From Acutalibacteraceae bacterium (GTDB lineage Bacteria > Bacillota > Clostridia > Oscillospirales > Acutalibacteraceae), in NCBI GenBank assembly GCA_045601885.1, contig JAZSAN010000005.1, positions 21,851 to 85,850 on the forward strand: a DNA stretch of 64,000 nucleotides, given 5' to 3'. Positions 1-13,342 of this stretch are shown one piece after another. The position numbers and the translations under genes are program-made. Each line of letters begins with the position of its first letter. Position 1 is the first letter of the stretch. Under the pieces are notes generated by a model. The model was not told where the DNA came from. It saw only the letters and a list, made by a program, of their open reading frames with translations, and did no database searches.

Positions 1-1
1 G

Positions 2-493
2 TTTAGACGACGATTTGGTAATTGTGAGTACATAAATGCTATCGAATATCAGAACCGCGGAGCACTACATTGTCACTTAATAGTAATTTTTGATGAAAAT
101 CCAACATTTACAATAACTAATGATGATATCAAAAAGTGTTGGAAACATGGTAGTTCTAATATCGGTCCGGTAACATCAGCGGAAGCTGATGCAAAATATC
201 TTACAAATTTTCTTTTTGAATATAAAGTAGAAAAAGAAGATTCGGACTACATATTGAAAACTAAAAAGCAACGTAAAGGTGAAAGAGTCTGTTATTATCC
301 AAGCCATAGCAGACTCTTTAATTGTTCTCAAGGTATTAAACGACCAGAAGTTATTAAAAATATTCCTTATAGTGAAGCATTATCGATGTTTAATTCAATT
401 GAATTAACAAATGCATTATCTATATATAACGACGATGGTAACATTGTTACAATCGAAAATTATAAAATAAAAAATGAAAAGGAGGTCTGCTGA
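2..493 (+). CDS. Rolling-circle replication initiator / relaxase-like HUH endonuclease, C-terminal part (5' end truncated by the window)
   Basis: The frame is open from position 2. It shows an HUH-like motif (GALHCHLIVIF) followed by E-x3-KY (EADAKYLTNF), as in pC194/pUB110-type Rep proteins. Its stop overlaps the next start (TGATG). Confidence 0.55.
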   Translation, partial: FRRRFGNCEYINAIEYQNRGALHCHLIVIFDENPTFTITNDDIKKCWKHGSSNIGPVTSAEADAKYLTNFLFEYKVEKEDSDYILKTKKQRKGERVCYYPSHSRLFNCSQGIKRPEVIKNIPYSEALSMFNSIELTNALSIYNDDGNIVTIENYKIKNEKEVC

Positions 494-681
494 TGCCCCA
501 AATTCGCACTATTAAAGGCGCTGCCGACGAAATTAAGAAAGTTGACCCTAATACCGCAATAACTGAATATCGAATTAGATTACTAGTTAATGAAAAATCA
601 ATACCATCAGTTTCGGTTGGCAATCGAAAACTCGTCAATATGGACGACGTATGGGATTGCTTTAAATTTAAAGTTTCTTAA
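493..681 (+). CDS. Excisionase-like HTH DNA-binding protein (Xis-like)
   Basis: 62 aa, translationally coupled to Rep and immediately upstream of int. It has an HTH_17/excisionase-like pattern (ITEYRIRLLVNEKSIPSVSVGNRKLVN). Confidence 0.5.
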   Translation: MPQIRTIKGAADEIKKVDPNTAITEYRIRLLVNEKSIPSVSVGNRKLVNMDDVWDCFKFKVS

Positions 682-695
682 TTAAAATTGATTTG

Positions 696-732
696 GGGTG
701 GGAAATAAAATTCCCACCCACTAGTGTATAAT
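696..732 (+). promoter_or_regulatory. Operator palindrome copy 1 plus an extended -10 (candidate int promoter)
   Basis: GGGTGGGAA-ATAAAA-TTCCCACCC is a perfect 9-bp inverted repeat (696-719). It is followed 7 nt later by TGTATAAT (725-732). There is no U-tract, so it does not look like a terminator. Confidence 0.5.
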
Positions 733-766
733 GAAGTCATAATCATAAGAAAGAGGTATTAATTAA

Positions 767-2134
767 ATGGCTTCTGTTGAAAAGCGAAGTAACGGTTATC
801 GTATTACAGTTTATGACGGTTATAATGATAGTGGCCGTCAAGTAAAACACCATAAAACCTGGAAACCTTCTGCCGATATGACCGAATATCAAATTAAAAA
901 AGAACTTGAAAGACAGTGCGTTGCTTTTGAGCAAGAATGTAAGAGCGGTCAAACATTATCCGGCGCAATAAAATTAAAAGAGTATATAGAACTTTGGTTT
1001 GATAAATATGCAGTATCTCATCTCAGACAAACAACACTTGATAATTATCACGATTTAAGTAAAAGAGTTTACAAAGAAATAGGACATATCAGAATAGATA
1101 GATTAAATCCTAATGACCTTAATAAATTTTATGCCTCATTGATGGGCTACACTCCGCAAAATCATAACAACTATGCTCTCAAATTTGACTTCAAATCAAT
1201 TTTATCCGAAAGAAACATTTCATATAGGAAGTTTGCCGAAATGTCAAATGTGGGTATCAGAACAGTAAATTCAATCGCTTCTGGCGATAATGTTTCTTTA
1301 CAAACAGCACATAAAATCGCTGATTGCTTAAAGCTCGATTTTGAAAAACATTTTAAACCTGCAAATAATCAAAAAGGCATATTATCTTCTAAAACCGTTA
1401 AACATTATCATAGTTTCTTATCATCAGCATTATCCAAAGCGGTAAAATGGGGTTATATTAAAGACAATCCTTGTGATAGAGTTGACCCGCCGCGAATCCA
1501 GCATAAACAAATAAAATGTTTCACGACAGATGAAGCAAAAATATTTTTAAAAGGATTATCACAAGAATGTTTAAAGTATCGCGTAATGTTTTCAATCCTA
1601 ATTTATACTGGACTTAGGCGCGGCGAACTATTAGGTCTTGAATGGTCTGATATTAACTTTGAAAAGAAAACAATTTCAATAAGTAGAACATCAGTACATA
1701 TACGTTCAAAAGGTATTGTTACAGATACTACAAAAAATGAATATTCAATCCGCGAAATTTCTATTTCAGATGAATTAATTGAACTTTTGAAATTATATTA
1801 TCAAGAGCAGCAAGAATTAAAAGCAAAGCTTGGAGATATGTGGGTTGAAACAAATAGAATTTGCATAAGAGATGATGGCAGCCCAATGGGTGTAGGCACG
1901 CCTTATAACACGTTACAAAAGTTACTAAAAAAATACAAATTGCCTGATGTTTCATTACATAGTTTAAGACATACTAACGCTACTATAATGATTGAATCAG
2001 GAACGGATTTAAAGACTACATCTACACGCTTAGGGCATTCTCAGGCAAGTACAACAATGAATATTTATGTTCATCAAATTAAATCATCAAATGAGCATGC
2101 AGCAGAAAATATATCTAAAGCATTAGCTATATAA
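767..2134 (+). CDS. int: Tyrosine site-specific integrase with an internal XRE-like HTH insertion
   Basis: It has an N-terminal arm-binding type start (MASVEKRSNGYRITVYDGY), a catalytic region with LRRGELLGLEW, HSLRHTNATIM and LGHSQASTTMNIYVH, and a good SD. Confidence 0.9.
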   Translation: MASVEKRSNGYRITVYDGYNDSGRQVKHHKTWKPSADMTEYQIKKELERQCVAFEQECKSGQTLSGAIKLKEYIELWFDKYAVSHLRQTTLDNYHDLSKRVYKEIGHIRIDRLNPNDLNKFYASLMGYTPQNHNNYALKFDFKSILSERNISYRKFAEMSNVGIRTVNSIASGDNVSLQTAHKIADCLKLDFEKHFKPANNQKGILSSKTVKHYHSFLSSALSKAVKWGYIKDNPCDRVDPPRIQHKQIKCFTTDEAKIFLKGLSQECLKYRVMFSILIYTGLRRGELLGLEWSDINFEKKTISISRTSVHIRSKGIVTDTTKNEYSIREISISDELIELLKLYYQEQQELKAKLGDMWVETNRICIRDDGSPMGVGTPYNTLQKLLKKYKLPDVSLHSLRHTNATIMIESGTDLKTTSTRLGHSQASTTMNIYVHQIKSSNEHAAENISKALAI

Positions 2135-2143
2135 ACAACGAAT

Positions 2144-2170
2144 ATCCCTACAGAGCAAAACTGTAGGGAT
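2144..2170. terminator. Bidirectional hairpin between int and the convergent 167-aa gene
   Basis: ATCCCTACAG-agcaaaa-CTGTAGGGAT is a perfect 10-bp stem. Confidence 0.6.
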
Positions 2171-2176
2171 ATAATT

Positions 2177-2680
2177 TTAATCATCGAAGGTATAACGGTA
2201 ATGCAAGTTATTATCATATATAAATTTGACAGACTTAATACCATTATAACCTTTTTTGAATTTTAATTTTGCAAGAATCATTTTGCGGTATTTTTCCTCT
2301 GCGAAAAAAGTGCTGCAATAAATAATAATCTTTTTATCCTTGCGTATCTCATATCTACCTCTTGGAAAGTAATAAAAAGACTTATTTTGAGTAATTGATT
2401 TATCGAAATCTTTCCATACATTTTCGTGGGAATATTTGTGTTTATCAAAAATTGCCTCTAACGAATTAAAGGAATACTTATATGTAATAAGCCGCTCATT
2501 ATTATATTTATCTTTTATTAACCAAAATACCCCTTTATTTAGGAAGTTCAAATCTTCATCCAAATATTCGCCGTCGGTGGTAATATCGGATTTTTCTTGT
2601 TTTTCTTCAATAATACTTTCAATGTATTCTGCAAGTTCTTCTCTCGTTCTTAAATTTTCGGTTAAAAAATTATAATCCAT
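2177..2680 (-). CDS. Hypothetical protein (167 aa), last gene of the minus-strand run
   Basis: Long ORF with an SD. It has an acidic N-terminus and an FYYFPRGRYEI motif. I do not recognise the family. Confidence 0.5.
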   Translation of the reverse strand: MDYNFLTENLRTREELAEYIESIIEEKQEKSDITTDGEYLDEDLNFLNKGVFWLIKDKYNNERLITYKYSFNSLEAIFDKHKYSHENVWKDFDKSITQNKSFYYFPRGRYEIRKDKKIIIYCSTFFAEEKYRKMILAKLKFKKGYNGIKSVKFIYDNNLHYRYTFDD

Positions 2681-2759
2681 CTATAACAATCCTTATTTAA
2701 TATAATAATTGAATAACTCTGCCAAATTTATAATTAAATAACAATAAATTAAGCTTAAA

Positions 2760-3986
2760 TTATCTATTAATTATTGTACAATTAGGATAATTTATTTCAT
2801 ACCAAGCCATAACACATTTTAATTGTAATCTACTAATACAAGGTGCCACCGACCATAAGCTATTTACCTCACTAAAATAATTTTTAATCCACAATGGAAT
2901 ATTATATTCATCTAAAAGATATTCATATTTATTATGCTTGTTATTATGACTCCAAAAAGCATGTTTTATAAAATCAAAGGCGATATCATCGGACATACCA
3001 TATGAAGTTAAAACTTCAAAAAATTCATCTTTAGAAACAAAAAAATCGGGTTTATATATGTTTTCTAATGATTTTTTATGAGTAAATGAACCATTTAGAT
3101 AAGCATATATTCGGGTTAATGTTTTAAAATCACATTCGGTAATCGTTTCAATTTCTTCAGTAAAAGCTCTTCCTCTAGCATATTCTTTTTCACTTATAGA
3201 TTTATTTTCTATAAATTCAGCCAACATTTCATTCGAATCTTTTGCAATGTATTTTAAAACCTCAATATACACATCTTTTTTATATTGTTCTGAGGTAGGA
3301 AAAACTCCTGTTTTTTTAGCAATTATTCCAATGTTTTCACATATCTTAGAATCTGCGATTATGATTTCCTTGTATATTTTTTTATTACTATTAACCGTAC
3401 CAAATTTCGCATTTAATCGTTTTTTAATTAAATGTTTAATTGATGCCGCAACACTTAATGAAAAATCTGGAATTTGCGGATTATAAAACGAACCCCATAC
3501 AATTTCAAATGGTATATAAAAGCCATCTTTTTTTATTTCCCCTTCGTTTTTCTGACAAATTTTATCTGGCATATCTATTCCAAAACCACTTGTAGATATT
3601 TTAGTATCAAAACAAAATGTACAAATCGAATCAGAACAACGATAATGTGCTTTCATTGGATTGATATATGAAACTCCAAGCAAATAAGCGATTACAGAAC
3701 CAGAAAGCGCGCCTTGAATCATAACAGGATAACCTTCCTCTCTTGATAAGTCTGTAATTTCTTTTATCAGAGCGAAATGAAAGGCGGTACCCGTCTTTTT
3801 CATTAATTGAAGTTCGGTTTCTAATCGTCCGACAATAAAATTCATACCATAAAGTTCACCGGCTTTTCCACGGCATAGTTTAATAATTTGTTGCTCAATA
3901 TTCTTTATTTCTTCTTCAGTCGGACAGGTAAAACTCAACTTGCAGTAATTTGTATTTTTACCCGCTGATATAATTTTAATGTTCAT
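2760..3986 (-). CDS. PolC-like (DNA polymerase III alpha, Gram-positive type) palm/fingers fragment, apparently catalytically degenerate
   Basis: It matches PolC landmarks: HY-C...C, GFGIDMPDKIC...KDGFYIPFE, and a C-terminal PLWIKNYFSEVNSLWSVAPC...AWYEINYP resembling PolC's VP.WYI.SC.KIKYMFPKAHAAAY...AYFK. PolC's PDIDLNFS is PDFSLSVA here, and the central catalytic segment is missing. Confidence 0.6.
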   Translation of the reverse strand: MNIKIISAGKNTNYCKLSFTCPTEEEIKNIEQQIIKLCRGKAGELYGMNFIVGRLETELQLMKKTGTAFHFALIKEITDLSREEGYPVMIQGALSGSVIAYLLGVSYINPMKAHYRCSDSICTFCFDTKISTSGFGIDMPDKICQKNEGEIKKDGFYIPFEIVWGSFYNPQIPDFSLSVAASIKHLIKKRLNAKFGTVNSNKKIYKEIIIADSKICENIGIIAKKTGVFPTSEQYKKDVYIEVLKYIAKDSNEMLAEFIENKSISEKEYARGRAFTEEIETITECDFKTLTRIYAYLNGSFTHKKSLENIYKPDFFVSKDEFFEVLTSYGMSDDIAFDFIKHAFWSHNNKHNKYEYLLDEYNIPLWIKNYFSEVNSLWSVAPCISRLQLKCVMAWYEINYPNCTIINR

Positions 3987-3998
3987 TTTGTTGCTCCT

Positions 3999-4673
3999 TT
4001 ATTTTACATAATATTCCTTGAAATCATTTAAACAAATACAACCCAAAATTCTACCAAAAACCGCCCCACAATCAATAGCAATATGATTATTTTTTATATA
4101 AATTTTTCCATCATATTTAGGGCCAATAAATATTGTTGGGGTGTGCCCGGTTACTATATATTTATTATCATAATATTTTTTATCATATTCAGGGGCGCCG
4201 GCAATAAAATCTTCACGCTCTAAATTGCAATCGAGCAACATTCTATCCTTTTGAGGTATAGTATGAGAAAGCCAAAATTTATTACCATCAACACTTATAT
4301 CTTTAAATATAGTAAACCGACTAATGTAGTTTATTATTTCAAATTGTTCACGCTCAGATAACTCTAGAAACGCATTATTTGTCGGTTCCCCGCCAATCAT
4401 CATCCACATTTTATATCCTAAATCAAGATAATCAAATTCTTCTCTGTTATATATCTTTTTAAACATTCTAAGCGCGGTATAATCGTGGTTACCTAATATA
4501 GGAATAACATTTTTTCTTTTCATCATATCTTGATATATTTTTATGCCGTCAGGTCCTCTGTCAACTATATCACCTAAAATATATAAAGTATCTTCATCAC
4601 TAAATTTTATCTTTTCAAGCATTTTTATATACAAATCATAACATCCGTGTAAATCACTCATTGCGTAAATCAT
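3999..4673 (-). CDS. PPP-family metallophosphoesterase (lambda phosphatase / PrpE / ApaH-like)
   Basis: Motifs present: SDLHG, GDIVDRGPDG, GNHD, GHTP. Confidence 0.85.
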   Translation of the reverse strand: MIYAMSDLHGCYDLYIKMLEKIKFSDEDTLYILGDIVDRGPDGIKIYQDMMKRKNVIPILGNHDYTALRMFKKIYNREEFDYLDLGYKMWMMIGGEPTNNAFLELSEREQFEIINYISRFTIFKDISVDGNKFWLSHTIPQKDRMLLDCNLEREDFIAGAPEYDKKYYDNKYIVTGHTPTIFIGPKYDGKIYIKNNHIAIDCGAVFGRILGCICLNDFKEYYVK

Positions 4674-4780
4674 AATTTAAACCTCTCAATAGTTATTTTT
4701 TATTATTGTATTTCTTGTAATTTAACGGCATTTTCCTACCTTTACTTACATAAAAAACACATACTGTTTTATTCTTAGCC

Positions 4781-5296
4781 TTAAACACATATTTCGTGAA
4801 TTAAGTTTCTATAAAAATCAATTTGATTTATTTTGGAAAAGTCTGTTTTTCTCTCGAGTTTTTCTCGAATGGGTTTAATCTCTTCTTCACACATATCATA
4901 ATAGGTCATATGATATAGTATTCCACCTAATATAGCATCAACGCCATATTTTTCAATACTACACTCATGAACAGGAATACCTAATGCCTGACCCCAATTC
5001 CAACCAAATTCAGTTATACCTTTTAAACTATAATTATTGGCAACAACTTTATCCATATCCGCAAGTGCAACATAAGGAAAGTTTTCATATTTTTCATGCG
5101 GTACAGCAATATAACCAAAATCTTCACCGCACAAATAACACCTTGTGGGAAGATACTCCTTGATATCATCTATTATTAAGCGATATCTTTCTATCAAAGT
5201 GTTTAAATCATCTTCCGGATATTTAGCCAACTTACAAATTGCTTTCGCAACACCTTCGACAGTGCATTCATAAATCAAATTCTCTGCATAGTACAT
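4781..5296 (-). CDS. Hypothetical protein (about 171 aa)
   Basis: The ORF-track start is 5311, but GAGGAG-7nt-ATG favours 5296. I recognise no family with confidence. Confidence 0.5.
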   Translation of the reverse strand: MYYAENLIYECTVEGVAKAICKLAKYPEDDLNTLIERYRLIIDDIKEYLPTRCYLCGEDFGYIAVPHEKYENFPYVALADMDKVVANNYSLKGITEFGWNWGQALGIPVHECSIEKYGVDAILGGILYHMTYYDMCEEEIKPIREKLERKTDFSKINQIDFYRNLIHEICV

Positions 5297-5364
5297 AAAA
5301 ATTCTCCTCACACAGTATTTTTATTTAAACTTTTTTAAGTTTTAATTTGTACCAATCACAGCAA

Positions 5365-5640
5365 TTAGAAATTTCGTCTATATCCTCGCGAATCTGTGAT
5401 GATATTCTTTTCTTTCCAATCGCACAAATTAATCCGAGCTTTATCTCTAGCGGTATATATTGTAACATTCTCATATGCTATTTCTTCAAGCAGGAATTGA
5501 ACCGCTGCAGCAACACCGTAGCAGTCGCCAATTATTATTTCATTACCTTCTTTACAAAGGTTCATAATGTAATTTATCGCTTCAATAGGCAGGCCGCTTA
5601 ATTCTTTACTGCCAAATATGTATACCTTCAAAAGTACCAC
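5365..5640 (-). CDS. Small Rossmann-like protein, possibly SLOG/DprA/DUF2493-like
   Basis: The pattern KVYIFGSKEL...NEIIIGDCYGVAAAVQ..L....NVTIY resembles SLOG/DprA-type folds. It has a GTG start and a weak SD. Confidence 0.35.
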   Translation of the reverse strand: MVLLKVYIFGSKELSGLPIEAINYIMNLCKEGNEIIIGDCYGVAAAVQFLLEEIAYENVTIYTARDKARINLCDWKEKNIITDSRGYRRNF

Positions 5641-5650
5641 TTTCTATAAT

Positions 5651-6439
5651 CTAAATGATTGTTTTTTTAATAAAATCACTAACAGGATACAACGCTATAT
5701 CTTTACCGGTTAGTTCTTCTGTGTAGTATTTTAAATTGGTGAAAAATAAAACATAATCTTTTTCGAGAGTTTTACCATCATCAGAGACATAATAGCAAAT
5801 AGCGCCCATATCATTTGGTGAAACGCTTTCTAATATGACTATTTTTTCTTCAATTAAATCATATAAAATATCGCCAGATTTAAAAGGAGTAGGCAGTTTA
5901 ACATAGTCTTCGGCCATCCCAAAAAAGGCGCTTAATGGGTTCCATTCGCTACATTTGTGAATAGAAATTAGTTCGCCATCAATATATTCCGCTTTAATTG
6001 TATCATCATACGTATTAAACGGTATTTTATGTATTTTATATCCCTTAACAACACGTTTTGTATTAATAATGTTTTCTTTAATATGATTTAAGCAGGATTC
6101 ATAATCTTTAAAGTAAATTGCCAAATGTGAAGTGTGTTCTTCATAATCAATAAATCCTGTATAAAATGAATTATCATCTTTTTCGGTGAGTTCCTGCTTT
6201 ATTAATTCAAGATAATCAAAGTATTCTTTTATAAATGTATGAACACTTTTGCCATCTGAACGTGCGAATTCAAAATCCGACATTGTTAAAATACATTCTA
6301 ATGCCTCTGTTTTTTCTTTTAATTTTAGATTTTCATTTTGTAATAATATCCATAAACAGTCTTGCGAACTCAATTCATAATTGATTTTTCTTAAATGCTC
6401 CGCTACATCTTTCGAGTGAATATATTTGTAAAAATCCAT
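5651..6439 (-). CDS. Hypothetical protein (262 aa)
   Basis: Long ORF with an SD (AGAAAGGA). No motif recognised. Confidence 0.5.
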   Translation of the reverse strand: MDFYKYIHSKDVAEHLRKINYELSSQDCLWILLQNENLKLKEKTEALECILTMSDFEFARSDGKSVHTFIKEYFDYLELIKQELTEKDDNSFYTGFIDYEEHTSHLAIYFKDYESCLNHIKENIINTKRVVKGYKIHKIPFNTYDDTIKAEYIDGELISIHKCSEWNPLSAFFGMAEDYVKLPTPFKSGDILYDLIEEKIVILESVSPNDMGAICYYVSDDGKTLEKDYVLFFTNLKYYTEELTGKDIALYPVSDFIKKTII

Positions 6440-6559
6440 TTTTAAAATTCCTTTCTTGAACCATTCTTTAAAATACTATTCTATTTCTTTCTATATCTAG
6501 TTTTATGGACTCAAACAGAAAATTGTACTATTTATTCCGTAAACTCGATATGGTTGGTT

Positions 6560-7021
6560 TTATGCGACATTGAAATCGTCGGCAAATTGAAATTTAAAAT
6601 CCAAACTTACGGCATAACGAGTAATAATCATGGCGTCAATTAGTCTACAACCTTCGCAATCAATTACACATTGTGGTGCTCCGAGCTCAAAAAGTCTGAA
6701 TAATCTTCTCACTCTGCATTCAACCATTTCATCTTCTAATTGCAGCTCTAAACATTGAACAACACAATCAGTCTCATATATTCCCACATTATCTTCTAAT
6801 TGAGAATATAATATTTCAAAATCATCAATTACGTTCTGCAAATCGTTTTTATCCCAATTCATAGTATAGGATTCAAAATGTTGCTTCTCATATTCATCTG
6901 AGAAAGGGTCTTCATTTCTACGTGACAAAGTCAGCATATTTTCATTTGTGTTTTCAAACAAAAGTTTTGCATACTCAGTCGGGGTAAACTCATAACCATC
7001 ATTAAAAAATTTAATCTCCAT
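6560..7021 (-). CDS. Hypothetical acidic protein (153 aa)
   Basis: Long ORF with an SD (AAGAGG). It is rich in D/E and has several Cys. Confidence 0.5.
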   Translation of the reverse strand: MEIKFFNDGYEFTPTEYAKLLFENTNENMLTLSRRNEDPFSDEYEKQHFESYTMNWDKNDLQNVIDDFEILYSQLEDNVGIYETDCVVQCLELQLEDEMVECRVRRLFRLFELGAPQCVIDCEGCRLIDAMIITRYAVSLDFKFQFADDFNVA

Positions 7022-7128
7022 TTTATTACCTCTTAATTCTTTATTCTAAAATTAAAAATAAACTTTTATATTTCACGGATGGTATTGCTCGTTTTATGGG
7101 TTTTCGTACATTAGTAACCACATCTTAC

Positions 7129-7890
7129 TCACAAAGAATCATAAAATTTAATAACCTTATCTATAAACTCTTTTACCATAGATTTATCAATCAACGCTTT
7201 GTGTCTTTGATAATATTCTTCAATTTTCCTTAAAGTGCGTATAAACTGCGGAATCGTAAGTTCCGTTTCTGTTAGAAGCATTAATGCTTCATTTTCAATT
7301 TTCACGCAAGAATTTTCTAAAAAGTTTGTTACCATTTCAATACGCTTTTCTTTGGCGGTAAAACCTGTATCAGCAAAAAGTGCCTCTCCAAAAATAAGTT
7401 TATATAAAACTTCTAATTCATGAGGATAACAATTTGATGCCAACAACACCTTCAGTCCATTTGAAACTTTTTTTAAAATCAATTTTGCAATTTCTTCTTG
7501 TGTTGTGGTTTTATTTAGCAAATAATCAACATCATCAATTATTAGAAGTTGCACTTCTTCAATTTCGTTTAGTCGTGTTTTTCGCTTGAATATAAAACTT
7601 AGATATTCTTCGCCCAATTCTTTGGCGTTAAGCGAACAAACACTGTGTTTTGTTTTGAATTGATTTTCCGTAGCTCTAAGAAGATGAGTTTTGCCTCGTC
7701 CAATTGGACCATATAACCATAATATCTTTATATCGTAAGGCAATGCTGAAAAAAATTCTTTACAAGCTACAACTGCAAAACGGTTAGTAGAATCTTCTAT
7801 GAATGTATCAAATGTAAATTCCTTTATGTCCAATTTCGCACAATCTACAGGTGACATACTAATATCGCCACTACAATTTTTAATCTCCAT
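7129..7890 (-). CDS. DnaA/Hda-like AAA+ ATPase lacking the DnaA DNA-binding domain
   Basis: Walker A is LYGPIGRGKTHLL and Walker B is LLIIDDVDYL. A DnaA domain-III-like TTQEEIAKLILKKVSNGLKVLLASN follows. At 253 aa it has no domain IV. Confidence 0.75.
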   Translation of the reverse strand: MEIKNCSGDISMSPVDCAKLDIKEFTFDTFIEDSTNRFAVVACKEFFSALPYDIKILWLYGPIGRGKTHLLRATENQFKTKHSVCSLNAKELGEEYLSFIFKRKTRLNEIEEVQLLIIDDVDYLLNKTTTQEEIAKLILKKVSNGLKVLLASNCYPHELEVLYKLIFGEALFADTGFTAKEKRIEMVTNFLENSCVKIENEALMLLTETELTIPQFIRTLRKIEEYYQRHKALIDKSMVKEFIDKVIKFYDSL

Positions 7891-7956
7891 TTTTATTGCC
7901 TCTCAATTATCAATATTTTTAAAAATTAATCTTCCTTTCTTATGGGCTCTATTTCT

Positions 7957-8004
7957 ATTATACTATTTACGTGGGCGAAATTTTTCCCACGCAAAGAGTA
8001 TAAT
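7957..8004. promoter_or_regulatory. Back-to-back promoters centred on operator palindrome copy 2
   Basis: The plus strand reads ATTATA-8nt-GTGGGCGAAATTTTTCCCAC-8nt-TATAAT. This places a TATAAT 8 nt from each side of the palindrome, one facing each way. Confidence 0.55.
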
Positions 8005-8060
8005 TAAATTAACGCAAAAAATAAATTTCACTAACCACTATAACAATTCTAACAGAAAAG

Positions 8061-8095
8061 GTGGGAAAATTATTTCCTACATTATGCGATATAAT
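8061..8095 (+). promoter_or_regulatory. Operator palindrome copy 3 plus a -10 immediately upstream of the WYL gene
   Basis: GTGGGAAAATTATTTCCTAC (8061-8080) is followed 9 nt later by TATAAT (8090-8095). Confidence 0.5.
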
Positions 8096-8145
8096 GGTTG
8101 TGTAAATCAAAGATTTACGTTATAATATTTAAGAGGTGTTAAATT

Positions 8146-9696
8146 ATGGTTCCGGAGTTAAAAAGGCTAAAAGTACTATATGTTTATGAAATTCTTTCAA
8201 ATTCGGGTGAAGAAATGTCCCGAGCAGAAATTAACAGAATTTTATGGGACAAATATAAGATAAAAGAAACACCAAAAACCTTAAAAAAATTATTAGATGA
8301 TATGGTTTACGCAGAACTTATCGAAACCGGAGAACAGAAAGATAGAAAAACCAAAAAAATAGATGAAAACGGTAAATTGATAGAAGAAGATACAACAATG
8401 ACCATGGGATATTTTGTTGAGAAAGATTTTTCTGATGATGAGCTGTTATGGATTATACATAACACTATTTTTTCTAAGCAACTTACCGAAAACAAATCTA
8501 ATAATTTAGTTAAAAAACTTCTTAAATTAGGAACTAACGGCTTAAAGCAAAAAGTTGGTAGCGTTGAAGGTATGAAACAGTTTTACCATACCCCTAATCC
8601 CGCAGTATCTAATAATATTGAAACTTTAAGTGATGCAATTCACGAAGATAAAACCGTTCAATTCATTTATACTGAATACAAAAAAGATAAACAGTTACAT
8701 CCGCTATCTGAAGAGCCGATTACTGTTAAACCTGCGCGTATGGTTCCGCTTAATGGATTTTATTATCTAATAGCCTATGAAACAGAGAGCGAGACTATCC
8801 AGCACTACCGAATAGACAAAATTAAAAATCTTAAAAAGACTGATATAAAAACCGATTTCAGTTCCAAAAACAGTCGCATAAACATTGATGAATATTTATC
8901 TTCACATTCTTTTATGTTTGCAGGTAAACCTATACCGGTAAAAATCAAAGTCCCCGAAGATAAAATCGGTCTGGTTATTGATAGGTTTGGTGATAAAATT
9001 CATATTTATCAGGATGATAGCGACTATGTATCAATAGGTTTTAATTCTAACGAATCAGACCTTTATGTATGGGCGCTTGAAAATGGTGATTATGTCGAAG
9101 TAATCGAACCGCAGCATTTAAGAAATAAAATCAGAAATACCGTACAATCAATGACAAGATGTTATTTACAATCAAATGAAGACATTTATTTTAATGCTAT
9201 AAAAACCGCAAGAGAAACCCAAATATTTTATTGTGAAAATTTCAATTTTGCTAACAGAGAAGAATGGCTTCAACTTACAGATATTGAAAGCCTTGACCTT
9301 GACAATAATGGTTTTACCGATATTTCTATATTAAAACGCTTTAAAAAACTTGAATTTTTAAAAATTCAAAATGAACATATATCAGATATTTCTGTAATAA
9401 AAGAGTTACCCTCTTTGGGAGATTTATGTTTGCGAAATACAGATGTTGATAGCATTGAAGGTTTGCGCAATAGCAATATCGGATTTGTGGAATTATTAAA
9501 TAATAAAAACATTACAGATTATAGTCCGCTTTATGATATTAAGAAATTAAGATTGCTCACCATCGATAATAAATCTGCAGAGAAAATTGATACAGAAAGA
9601 TTACTTAAAAAATATGACCCACTTGAAATTGTAATAGAATATCCGGATAGAGAAGATAAACATTTATTTTCCAAATCACTTTTAGAAGAAAATTAA
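8146..9696 (+). CDS. WYL-domain transcriptional regulator (wHTH-WYL-WCX) with a C-terminal leucine-rich-repeat domain
   Basis: It has an N-terminal wHTH. The WYL-type core is VQFIYTEY...NGFYYLIAYETESETIQHYRIDKIKNL. The C-terminus has about five 22-aa internalin-type LRRs (LDLDNNGFTDISILKRFKKLEFLKIQNEHISDISVIKELPSL...). Confidence 0.75.
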   Translation: MVPELKRLKVLYVYEILSNSGEEMSRAEINRILWDKYKIKETPKTLKKLLDDMVYAELIETGEQKDRKTKKIDENGKLIEEDTTMTMGYFVEKDFSDDELLWIIHNTIFSKQLTENKSNNLVKKLLKLGTNGLKQKVGSVEGMKQFYHTPNPAVSNNIETLSDAIHEDKTVQFIYTEYKKDKQLHPLSEEPITVKPARMVPLNGFYYLIAYETESETIQHYRIDKIKNLKKTDIKTDFSSKNSRINIDEYLSSHSFMFAGKPIPVKIKVPEDKIGLVIDRFGDKIHIYQDDSDYVSIGFNSNESDLYVWALENGDYVEVIEPQHLRNKIRNTVQSMTRCYLQSNEDIYFNAIKTARETQIFYCENFNFANREEWLQLTDIESLDLDNNGFTDISILKRFKKLEFLKIQNEHISDISVIKELPSLGDLCLRNTDVDSIEGLRNSNIGFVELLNNKNITDYSPLYDIKKLRLLTIDNKSAEKIDTERLLKKYDPLEIVIEYPDREDKHLFSKSLLEEN

Positions 9697-9723
9697 TGTA
9701 AACAAATATTTACAAACAAAAAA

Positions 9724-9768
9724 ACCGATAGATAATGCAAAATCGCAAAATCTATCGGTTAATTTTTT
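9724..9768 (+). terminator. Rho-independent terminator of the WYL gene
   Basis: ACCGATAGAT...ATCTATCGGT stem followed by TAATTTTTT. Confidence 0.65.
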
Positions 9769-9770
9769 GT

Positions 9771-9790
9771 GTGGGAAAATTTTTTCTTAC
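9771..9790 (+). promoter_or_regulatory. Operator palindrome copy 4
   Basis: GTGGGAAAATTTTTTCTTAC is followed by TATGGT (9795-9800). It points into the 3' end of the convergent XRE gene. Confidence 0.4.
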
Positions 9791-9818
9791 CTACTATGGT
9801 AAACTATTTATAAAGAAA

Positions 9819-10118
9819 TTAATTCTTGTTTTCAAGGGCTTTTATAACATTTATAACTACGTCAATTTCATCTTCTGAAAGGTTAGAAACGTCAAGCATA
9901 CGAACCTTTTCTATATCAAGAAGATAATCGGTTGTAACGTGGAACAGGTGCGCCATTTTTACCAAAACATCATAAGATGGGTATCTGTCCCCAGATTCAT
10001 AATATGAAATAACAGACTTAGCAACTCCAAGTCTTTCGGCTAATTCTCGCTGTGATAATTTTTGTCCTGTTCTAAGCATCTTTAATTTTTCACCAAAGTT
10101 CACTTTATTTGTACCCAC
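9819..10118 (-). CDS. XRE-family HTH transcriptional regulator
   Basis: LSQRELAERLGVAKSVISYYESGDRYPSYDVLVKMAHLFHVTTDYLL. Confidence 0.9.
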   Translation of the reverse strand: MGTNKVNFGEKLKMLRTGQKLSQRELAERLGVAKSVISYYESGDRYPSYDVLVKMAHLFHVTTDYLLDIEKVRMLDVSNLSEDEIDVVINVIKALENKN

Positions 10119-10156
10119 CTTTCAATATCAGTCAACATTATTTTACTATTGTATCG

Positions 10157-10186
10157 TTGACAATTGGATATTTATTATGATAAAAT
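10157..10186 (+). promoter_or_regulatory. Sigma-A-type promoter for the 10250-13107 operon, embedded in GTCAAC/GTTGAC repeats
   Basis: TTGACA (10157-10162), then an 18-nt spacer ending in TG, then TAAAAT (10181-10186). GTCAAC/GTTGAC inverted copies and further GTCAA/TGAC elements flank it and are likely XRE operators. Confidence 0.55.
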
Positions 10187-10249
10187 AGTGGACAAGACAG
10201 TCAAAAACTATTATACTGACATTATAAATAACCGATTGGAGTGTTTGTA

Positions 10250-12218: not shown

Positions 12219-12425
12219 ATGGCAGATAAATATATTGTTGAAAGCGTAGTACATAATCGCGCTGTAAAGACAGAGGTATGGGCTCACACACCCAAAGAGG
12301 CCCAGGCATATGCAAAAAAGACATATGGTGACGCATATTCACATTCTTTTAGAACTACCAGGGTTTCTGGGACAAACGGTACTGAAGAATTTAAATGGCG
12401 TCGCGATAGAGGTATGCTTAAATAA
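12219..12425 (+). CDS. Small hypothetical protein (68 aa)
   Basis: It has a GAGGTGA SD and shares a PKEAQAYAKKTYG-like motif with the next small ORF. Confidence 0.45.
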   Translation: MADKYIVESVVHNRAVKTEVWAHTPKEAQAYAKKTYGDAYSHSFRTTRVSGTNGTEEFKWRRDRGMLK

Positions 12426-12473
12426 TCTCTTAATGAGCTTGTTTTAGAAAATAAAAGAAAGGAGTTTACAAAA

Positions 12474-12638
12474 ATGCATGAATTTCTTGTAAGATTTACC
12501 CTTAACAGAAAGACTGTTGAAGAAGTTGTAAAAGCAGTAAGCGGTTTTGAAGCTAAAGAGCAAATCAAAAACAAATATGGTAGCAGTAATGTTACTATTA
12601 TTAACTGTAAAGATTTAAAATTCGGTTGGATGGTTTAA
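12474..12638 (+). CDS. Small hypothetical protein (54 aa), not in the ORF track
   Basis: AAAGGAG-8nt-ATG start. Translation is MHEFLVRFTLNRKTVEEVVKAVSGFEAKEQIKNKYGSSNVTIINCKDLKFGWMV. It resembles the preceding 68-aa protein. Confidence 0.4.
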   Translation: MHEFLVRFTLNRKTVEEVVKAVSGFEAKEQIKNKYGSSNVTIINCKDLKFGWMV

Positions 12639-13119: not shown

Positions 13120-13162
13120 AAACCGAAATTACTATTAAAAGTAGTGATTTCGGTTGTTTTTT
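13120..13162 (+). terminator. Rho-independent terminator of the 10250-13107 operon
   Basis: AACCGAAATTACT...AGTGATTTCGGTT stem followed by a T-run. Confidence 0.6.
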
Positions 13163-13259
13163 AGCATAATAAGCCCCAAATAAGCCCCCAAATGCACCAG
13201 AGAGCAAAAAAGAAAATCCCTAAAACCTTATAAACAAAGGCTTTAGGGACTCTTTAAGT

Positions 13260-13342
13260 TGGTGCGGGTGACAGGACTTGAACCTGCACGAATGCTCACC
13301 AGATCCTAAGTCTGGCGCGTCTGCCAATTCCGCCACACCCGC
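13260..13342 (-). tRNA. tRNA-Leu (anticodon UAG), long variable arm, encoded CCA
   Basis: The reverse complement GCGGGTG..CCAGA-CTTAGGA-TCTGG..GGTTCAAGTCC..CACCCGC-A-CCA folds as a class II cloverleaf. Confidence 0.9.

Follow-up and report, generated by a model that had tools for sequence, protein, structure and literature searches.

A conserved 20-bp palindrome at predicted promoters of a tRNA-Leu island family of gut Clostridia, and a WYL-WCX-LRR protein as its probable reader

A stretch of 64,000 nucleotides (nt) from an Acutalibacteraceae bacterium (GCA_045601885.1, contig JAZSAN010000005.1, positions 21,851 to 85,850 of the forward strand; the whole stretch is hereafter called the window) carries near its left end four copies of a 20-bp palindrome, here called the box, among the genes for a tyrosine integrase, a minus-strand operon and a regulator in which WYL and WCX domains are joined to a leucine-rich repeat (LRR) tail. 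The question raised by this locus is what these boxes are, which protein reads them, and whether that protein switches the adjoining genes on or off. Judged from sequence comparison, the box is very likely a regulator-binding promoter element, and the WYL-WCX-LRR protein (WYL-LRR in the following) is probably its reader. Given that WYL-LRR is the reader, activation is somewhat favoured as its mode of action, and the complete proposal, in which WYL-LRR activates hybrid promoters throughout the island by binding the box, is put forward tentatively.

The four copies are located at 698-717 (box 1, GTGGGAAATAAAATTCCCAC, 28.4 bits), 7971-7990 (box 2, GTGGGCGAAATTTTTCCCAC, 24.4 bits), 8061-8080 (box 3, GTGGGAAAATTATTTCCTAC, 29.5 bits) and 9771-9790 (box 4, GTGGGAAAATTTTTTCTTAC, 26.0 bits), exactly where a preliminary description of this DNA had placed them, and differ from its pattern GTGGG-N10-CCCAC by 0, 0, 1 and 2 mismatches, respectively. 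Their consensus is GTGGGAAA-N4-TTTCCCAC, with 8-bp arms and a 4-bp spacer that is almost pure A/T in the four boxes, box 2 carrying C and G at two positions, and box 1 forms part of a longer palindrome of 24 bp (696-719). The preliminary description had proposed a search of the whole genome and of related elements with up to two mismatches. In the window this loose pattern gave nine matches against 4.1 expected, a weak enrichment when taken alone, and the five further matches have G/C-containing spacers and lie inside coding DNA. As the count was barely above chance, we used a weight matrix instead, symmetrised and built on 27 non-redundant sites taken from the window and related loci. Over the 64 kb it returned exactly four matches of at least 12 bits, which are the four boxes (24.4-29.5 bits), and the best score outside 1-9800 was 10.0 bits. 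The other 54 kb of the window hold no copy of at least 12 bits, in agreement with the earlier remark that the motif is missing from the core genes and the right-hand prophage. In 500 first-order Markov simulations of the AT-rich 13.2-kb part of the window, the mean number of matches of at least 12 bits was 0.1, and 24 bits was reached in 0/500. Because the matrix contains the window's own sites this test is partly circular, while the comparative evidence is independent of the matrix.

That evidence comes from related islands. About 33 full-length relatives of WYL-LRR were identified (40-90% identity), all of them in metagenome-assembled genomes (MAGs) or metagenomes, and its three genome matches are Acutalibacteraceae or Eubacteriales MAGs. 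The loci compared (denoted by L numbers) were 16 retrieved via WYL-LRR relatives and three more via a homologue of the XRE-family regulator encoded next to it. No relatives of either protein were found in the JGI metagenome contigs or in IMG/VR, a megablast of 1-10200 against plasmids gave no match, and a scan of IMG/VR for the exact box gave just 10 single, unrelated matches, which we take as chance. The relatives share a common order, namely a minus-strand SUFU-like gene, a replication module, xis, int, a minus-strand operon, the WYL-LRR gene, the XRE gene on the minus strand, variable plus-strand cargo and a tRNA-Leu gene, the last of these seen at the end in seven loci. The replication module consists of either Rep or PolA together with a D5-type primase-helicase. 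Within this order the box is conserved in about 14 related islands from MAGs and metagenomes of gut Clostridia. L001, L004-L016 and L034-36, contigs whose WYL proteins share only 40-90% identity, carry it in matching intergenic positions, four to five in number. Matrix matches in the relatives fall only at these orthologous intergenic positions.

The first of the positions (a) lies between the SUFU-like gene and the replication genes, to the left of the window; relatives of the PolA/primase type have one to three copies here, and in the Rep-type relatives L006 and L012, which are of the window's type, only a half-site-like sequence is present. Position b is the interval between xis and int, which contains box 1 in the window and its orthologue in L006, L005/L007, L013-15 and L034. 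Position c, between the operon and the WYL-LRR gene, has two boxes about 90 bp apart (boxes 2 and 3), and position d follows directly after the WYL-LRR terminator beside the 3' end of the XRE gene, where box 4 stands between these two convergent genes. At position a, one or two auxiliary weaker boxes are also seen 30-32 bp (and about 49 bp) further upstream of the replication box of the PolA/primase type (L005 2561-2660, L007 2573-2671, L013 2590-2641, L014 2587-2637 and L015 1901-1951), an arrangement that suggests cooperative binding. A leader of about 300 nt extends from the replication box to the first replication gene (L003 ~900-1070, L012 ~5080-5260, L006 ~1700-1850 and L005 ~2660-2960) and contains conserved blocks such as gtaccttgaaaattgaata, to which some loci add a GC-rich segment (gagcg..gc.acgcc.cgg). 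It may represent an origin, a region for a leader peptide or an unknown RNA; no Rfam family was matched in the island of the window or in the long leaders of the relatives.

All four boxes in the window are accompanied by a -10-like hexamer at a nearly constant distance. An extended -10 element (TGTATAAT, 725-732 on the plus strand, with the TG at 725-726 and the hexamer at 727-732) follows box 1 after 9 nt and is the predicted int promoter. Box 2 is predicted to serve divergent promoters, since a TATAAT on the plus strand (7999-8004) lies 8 nt past it towards the WYL-LRR gene and another on the minus strand (7957-7962) lies 8 nt from it in the direction of the operon, and the 45-nt arms around this box are symmetric too. 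Box 3 is likewise flanked by -10-like hexamers on both strands: a TATAAT 9 nt past it (8090-8095, plus strand) marks the predicted box-dependent WYL-LRR promoter, and a TAGAAT 9 nt from it (8046-8051, minus strand) may represent a second leftward promoter, with a hexamer conserved at this place in L001, L004, L006, L009, L010, L013 and L034. Past box 4, again after 9 nt, is a TAAACT (9800-9805, plus strand), a predicted promoter that would be read through the XRE gene in antisense and on towards the cargo on the plus strand. TAAACT or TAAATT is kept at the same gap in L001, L004, L006, L007, L009-11, L014-16 and L034, the predicted transcript would begin about 7 nt ahead of the XRE stop codon and run antisense to XRE, and no plus-strand terminator is predicted between this promoter and the cargo genes. 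Three of the -10 hexamers named in the preliminary description (725-732, 7999-8004 and 8090-8095) are the same as ours, but its fourth, a TATGGT at a 4-nt gap, gives way to this TAAACT at the 9-nt gap found throughout the family.

The spacing was surveyed in 47 non-redundant combinations of site and flank from the window and its relatives. A TAnnnT hexamer occurs downstream of the main box after 9 nt in 34/47 sites and after 8 nt in 4/47 (38/47 for the two gaps together), and on the opposite strand of the same 47 it occurs after 9 nt in 18 sites and after 8 nt in four. The gap of 8-9 nt is seen across seven position classes and, because the flanks of these classes are unrelated, we take it as a constraint and not as simple descent. 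With a 9-nt gap the box spans about -41 to -22 relative to the predicted starts, its proximal half-site TTTCCCAC occupies about -29 to -22, and the location of a -35 element coincides with the A/T centre of the box. A scan for consensus sigma-70 -35/-10 pairs misses every box promoter, and these promoters are without a -35; the same scan does rank the XRE/cargo promoter (TTGACA-18-TAAAAT, 10157-10186) second. The notion that the boxes take the position of a -35 element is hence upheld in one respect, as the box covers that place at a fixed gap, and needs correction in another, as the promoters themselves are without a -35. A box-independent promoter (TTGTGT-17-TATAAT, 8098-8126, plus strand) is located closer to the WYL-LRR gene, and the 100 nt upstream of this gene are 80-98% identical among the relatives, except in L012 and L003, the most divergent (69%). 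The spacer of the proximal promoter contains a different conserved palindrome (GTAAATCAAAGATTTAC, 8102-8118), present in a single copy in the window.

WYL-LRR itself is a protein of 516 amino acids (aa) encoded at 8146-9696 on the plus strand. It matches WYL (4e-11) and WCX (1.3e-8) in Pfam and WYL in PADLOC (1e-27), and no helix-turn-helix (HTH) domain of Pfam was matched in it. Its domains comprise a winged HTH (residues 1-95), WYL and WCX (to about 340) and an internalin-type LRR (about 360-516). The AlphaFold2 model has a predicted local distance difference test (pLDDT) score of 80, and in its N-terminal domain, with a pLDDT of about 86, helices 8-20, 26-37 and 43-55 are followed by a beta-hairpin wing at 60-90. 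A sequence search of the PDB with a profile of the whole protein was swamped by LRR proteins, and with residues 1-345 it gave nothing significant, for which reason a fold search was used. With the whole chain, Foldseek placed the activators DriD (8tp8, bound to single-stranded DNA and DNA) and PafBC on RNA polymerase (9fnd) at the top (E = 4e-13), and the repressors BrxR and CapW lower, at about 1e-7 (7qfz, 7t8k and 7tb5). WYL-LRR is thus a member of the HTH-WYL-WCX regulator family. No description of WYL-LRR fusions or of this island family was found in the literature, within an incomplete library.

The three parts of WYL-LRR do not vary together. Relative to the window, the identities of the N-terminal domain, core and LRR are 42, 91 and 82% in L005, 100, 93 and 36% in L006, and 44, 82 and 35% in L009. 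The N-terminal HTH varies most within the family, with 33-44% identity from type to type, and appears shuffled independently of the core and the LRR; these discordant identities indicate domain shuffling, and the HTH and LRR are possibly under diversifying selection. In the recognition helix (43-55), K/R44 and T45 are invariant, and a basic residue is present at 47 or 51 in every type of N-terminal domain except that of L003. Positions 47 and 51 lie on the same face of the helix, and specificity could therefore survive a low overall identity.

The genes around the boxes belong to a tRNA-Leu-integrating island which continues past the left edge of the window and ends near 13.2 kb. The proposal that 1-9.8 kb forms a single functional unit was accordingly drawn too narrowly, as the island runs further left into replication genes and right to about 13.2 kb. 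The window begins within a gene for a rolling-circle Rep protein (REP_ORF2-G2P), which is followed by a gene for a Xis-like protein of 62 aa (493-681) and by the gene for the tyrosine integrase of 455 aa (767-2134, plus strand), which every related locus has kept. In the integrase an HTH_3/HTH_26-like segment (residues 143-193) separates the SAM-like domain from the catalytic one, which is unusual for tyrosine recombinases. To the right, plus-strand genes of unknown function reach 13107, and the island ends on this side at the tRNA-Leu gene (13260-13342, minus strand); the first 13 kb or so have about 30% GC, and the DNA beyond has about 38%. The arrangement at this end (13121-13253 of the window together with the tRNA-Leu gene) is also present in L003, L004, L005, L009, L013 and L034. 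A comparison of the tRNA-Leu end with the leftmost 3.5 kb in L003, L005 and L013 revealed no direct repeats of at least 12 nt that might serve as attachment sites.

The minus-strand operon (2177-7890) has eight genes which, in order from the promoter, encode a DnaA/DnaC-like AAA+ ATPase, proteins of 153, 262 and 91 aa, a DUF6557 protein, a NinI-like Ser/Thr phosphatase (matching phrog_246, E = 4e-39), a PolC-palm-like protein of 408 aa and a protein of 167 aa. In nearly all relatives its core is the phosphatase and a protein of about 265 aa (262-273 aa), around which the other content varies, and L012 is without a called phosphatase. PADLOC detected no component of a known defence system among the eight proteins, and with PADLOC and PHROGs the operon matches no known defence or phage module save for the NinI-like phosphatase and the DnaC-like ATPase. 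The operon may represent a module for defence or for interference with replication of an uncharacterised kind. The picture of a cargo operon guarded by a BrxR-type regulator is not borne out, as WYL-LRR, like XRE, is encoded by a backbone gene, the operon varies around its phosphatase core and no known defence system was detected.

Downstream of the WYL-LRR gene an intrinsic terminator (9725-9769, plus strand; hairpin 9725-9758 followed by a T-run) is conserved in the relatives and in L032, a locus in which Peptidase_M78 and HTH_17 genes stand in place of the WYL gene. Beside this pair, L032 has a GC-rich non-coding stretch of about 400 bp (12240-12620) with repeated units (…gcggtgcccgaaa…cgac[ct]gc[gt]gcactc…). 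The XRE-family regulator of the window, convergent with the WYL-LRR gene, has 94 aa and a GTG start (9819-10103, minus strand); it is 85-98% identical across the island family and its HTH is identical. The control region between XRE and cargo (10104-10240) contains conserved GTCCACTA, GTCAAC and GTTGACT motifs, which are probable XRE operators, and the GTGGG box is absent from this region and its orthologues. A possible XRE promoter (TTGACT-17-ACAAAT, 10104-10125) ends a few nt before the GTG start, which may make the XRE mRNA leaderless; the GGTGGG just upstream would in that case not be a ribosome-binding site. The XRE family is larger than the island family (769 matches), and homologues with 68-73% identity and nearly the same recognition helix, AKSV(I/V)SYYESG, are found in Tn7-like transposons; five such loci keep the motifs of the control region and have no box of at least 10 bits. 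XRE and its control region seem to travel as a portable module (L027-L033, 68-86% identity), found in elements with TnsB/TniB/TniQ or next to a Peptidase_M78/HTH_17 pair and always divergent from variable cargo genes, for example one for an Mrr-type nuclease.

On these grounds we propose that a box combined with a sigma-A -10 element at 8-9 nt, without a -35, constitutes a hybrid type of promoter for the island backbone, which would drive the replication genes (left of the window), the integrase, the divergent operon and WYL-LRR genes, and the transcript antisense to XRE towards the cargo. A dimer of WYL-LRR would bind -41 to -22, with the proximal half-site TTTCCCAC in place of the '-26 element' of PafBC, and would act as a signal-dependent activator that replaces the missing contact at -35. 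The box-independent proximal promoter would provide a basal level of the regulator, and boxes 2 and 3 would add positive feedback; the presence of this promoter fits such a scheme, though it would be consistent with a repressor too. Once the WYL domain, the LRR domain or both sensed a signal, replication, integrase, operon and cargo would be switched on together. The earlier expectation that one regulator governs the integrase, the operon and the WYL-LRR gene stands to the extent that the conserved box ties all three together, and the identity of the binder is what we infer. In favour of WYL-LRR, the promoter region of its own gene contains two strong boxes (2 and 3), its fold is closest to those of the DNA-bound activators DriD, which itself reads a 20-bp palindrome, and PafBC, and its recognition helix keeps the residues named above. 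In L002 and L003 the XRE HTH is identical to that of the window and the boxes have drifted below 7 bits with the 9-nt gap to the -10 kept, and L003 has both the most deviant WYL-LRR recognition helix and the most divergent boxes. There is no clear covariation of box variants with the types of the WYL-LRR N-terminal domain, L003 with its odd helix and drifted boxes being the only suggestive case.

A number of observations weigh against this proposal. The boxes are constant despite the variable HTH of WYL-LRR; in L009 the N-terminal domain is only 44% identical and the boxes are identical, and L002, with a recognition helix of type-C-like kind, carries another inverted repeat in the promoter of its WYL gene. 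The near-invariant XRE fits the invariance of the box better than the WYL-LRR HTH does, a probable XRE half-site, TTGTCCAC, matches the box half-site TTTCCCAC at 6/8 positions, and L032, without a WYL gene, retains a relic of box 4 beside XRE (15 bits, with a 9-nt gap to TACACT). With respect to activation, the fixed spacing could be inherited rather than selected, and AT-rich Firmicute promoters with a perfect -10, one of them with a TG, may fire without an activator, in which case a site at -41 to -22 represses. PafBC contacts DNA asymmetrically via one HTH, whereas the box is symmetric.

Several of these points lead to other readings, and the most basic of them would deny that the palindromes are promoter elements at all and take them for hairpins or terminators in RNA, for repeats of the REP type, or for sites of recombination or replication. 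Each palindrome does fold as an RNA hairpin (-9 to -18 kcal/mol), box 1 comes after xis and box 4 after the WYL-LRR gene, and module boundaries of the mosaic family fall near boxes. However, the terminator scan lists no box, no T-run follows any of them and box 4 comes after a genuine WYL-LRR terminator, while changes in the arms are not consistently compensatory, as in GTAGG...CCCAT. Repeats of the REP type (repetitive extragenic palindromes) or BIME type (bacterial interspersed mosaic elements) are not indicated by the scan of the window and the relatives, in which copies of at least 12 bits are missing from the other 54 kb and those of the relatives occur only at orthologous promoters; the box keeps to promoter regions, where a -10 accompanies it at a fixed gap, and the view of it as a promoter box and not a REP-like element is thereby borne out. 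A replication origin is not indicated either, because boxes occur with both replicon types (rolling-circle Rep, and PolA with primase) and are thus not tied to one origin. Taken together, a role outside promoters is scarcely probable. Among proteins, the 94-aa XRE is the nearest competitor of WYL-LRR: the box would be its operator, XRE would act as a CI-like master repressor of all backbone promoters, and WYL-LRR would be a target or a sensor acting differently. Besides its identical HTH, which is as invariant as the box, an XRE dimer would fit a dyad of 20 bp, box 4 directly adjoins the 3' end of the XRE gene and its relic stays beside XRE in L032, and the XRE-region motifs TTGTCCAC and TTCCACTA resemble the box half-site. 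The highly conserved promoter region of XRE itself nevertheless has no box, the five Tn7-like loci with practically the same recognition helix lack one of at least 10 bits, the boxes of L002 and L003 have drifted though the XRE HTH is unchanged, and the relic in L032 is explicable by linkage, as the adjoining terminator was retained too; we thus consider XRE an unlikely reader. Any reader other than these two proteins seems less likely still, and the more specific suggestion that the reader is the 62-aa Xis-like HTH protein, the HTH_3 insert of the integrase or a host factor is very unlikely. Xis and Int are present in every locus of the family long enough to cover their region, Int has the HTH_3-like segment, and excisionase-type proteins can double as transcription regulators. 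Recombination directionality factors and the arm-binding domains of integrases, however, normally bind direct repeats near the ends of elements and not symmetric dyads at -35, and no box is found in the 50 kb of host DNA in the window, so that a host regulon is not indicated.

If WYL-LRR is the reader, the same box could also serve repression, WYL-LRR acting over the -35 region in the manner of BrxR and CapW and silencing the island until a ligand releases it. Most characterised WYL regulators of mobile or defence islands are repressors with palindromes in their own promoters (PMC9122601; PMC13622015). The stretch from -41 to -22 is an occluding position, the -10 hexamers come close to perfect, with a TG extension in one case, and the constitutive proximal promoter could supply the repressor. 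Occlusion, however, needs no strict gap of 8-9 nt in seven position classes, the promoters are without a -35 and mostly without a TG extension, the fold is nearer to DriD and PafBC than to BrxR and CapW, and the operator of BrxR, unlike the box, lies downstream of the -10 (PMC9122601). This repressor reading seems somewhat unlikely to us, though it comes ahead of XRE as a reader. The repression of the BrxR/CapW kind implied by the preliminary description is disfavoured on similar grounds, as fold and promoter architecture are closer to activation of the DriD or PafBC kind (PMC8635444). A more far-reaching version of activation, which we regard as speculative and quite unlikely in this full form, sees WYL-LRR as a new kind of sensor-activator. 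Its hypervariable, domain-shuffled LRR, possibly with the WYL ligand pocket, would detect a protein of an invading phage or other mobile element, and through the boxes in place of a -35, by a mechanism akin to sigma adaptation that is not yet known from Firmicutes, WYL-LRR would switch on the whole island, from replication, integrase and phosphatase operon to, via the promoter antisense to XRE, the variable cargo. The island would then be an inducible satellite or defence island in which recognition reminiscent of nucleotide-binding LRR receptors (NLR-like) is fused directly to a transcription factor.

If the proposal that WYL-LRR activates through the box is true, one box of 20 bp marks out the whole regulon of a tRNA-Leu island family of gut Clostridia that has not been described before, and WYL-controlled promoters in which a box replaces the -35, so far known from actinobacterial PafBC, extend to mobile elements of Firmicutes. 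The internalin-type LRR, shuffled between relatives, suggests that sensing of proteins is coupled directly to transcription, and the antisense promoter through XRE suggests a simple switch between a silent and an induced state in which variable, possibly defensive cargo is expressed. The system is small, comprising four boxes and two regulators, and lends itself to experiments.

Among known systems, PafBC of mycobacteria offers the closest parallel in promoter architecture. Its promoters have no -35, a canonical -10 and an element at -23 to -28, a mode of action termed 'sigma adaptation' (PMC8635444). Both cases involve a regulator of the WYL family with an HTH, a canonical -10 without a -35, an element at a fixed short distance upstream, and one regulator for many promoters, and the element of PafBC (-28 to -23) nearly coincides with the box half-site (about -29 to -22). 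PafBC differs, however, in being an asymmetric fusion or heterodimer of PafB and PafC that reads one non-palindromic element and places its second HTH on region 4 of sigma, whereas the window has a symmetric 20-bp dyad and a single regulator gene of this kind, for which a homodimer with both HTHs on DNA is expected. The window further differs in its low-GC Firmicute host, in a regulon confined to a mobile island, in the LRR tail and in that activation is inferred. The promoters described here may therefore work like the hybrid promoters of PafBC without being members of that system. DriD of Caulobacter crescentus, a WYL activator that binds a 20-bp palindrome (PMC9186387, PDB 8tp8), resembles WYL-LRR in its 20-bp palindromic operator, its homodimeric build of HTH, WYL and dimerisation domain, the site in its own promoter and its place as top structural match. 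The sites of DriD, in contrast, extend no further downstream than -36, and its promoters have a -35, whereas the box replaces the -35; DriD also lacks an LRR, is chromosomal and responsive to DNA damage, and controls no mobile island.

The repressors BrxR and CapW are, like WYL-LRR, WYL-WCX regulators encoded beside the island genes they control, with inverted repeats in their own promoters and more than one box per island. BrxR represses from an operator with arms of 10-11 bp and a 5-bp spacer located downstream of the -10 (PMC9122601), whereas the box has 8-bp arms and a 4-bp spacer and is found upstream of the -10 at 8-9 nt. The controlled genes of the window contain no known defence system, the similarity in fold is weaker and WYL-LRR has the additional LRR; the box is hence not an operator of the BrxR/CapW type in geometry or context. 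In systems of the CI/ImmR type, dyad operators overlapping promoters silence integrase and replication genes, and the window resembles them in having a small island-encoded XRE divergent from the genes that it probably controls. It differs in that the box is found neither in the control region of XRE itself nor in elements with close XRE homologues, and in that its island has no ImmA-like protease, one being present in L032. What is known from other systems is therefore the WYL-regulated regulon as such, while the symmetric box that replaces the -35, its island-wide scope, the antisense promoter through XRE and the mosaic LRR tail are new.

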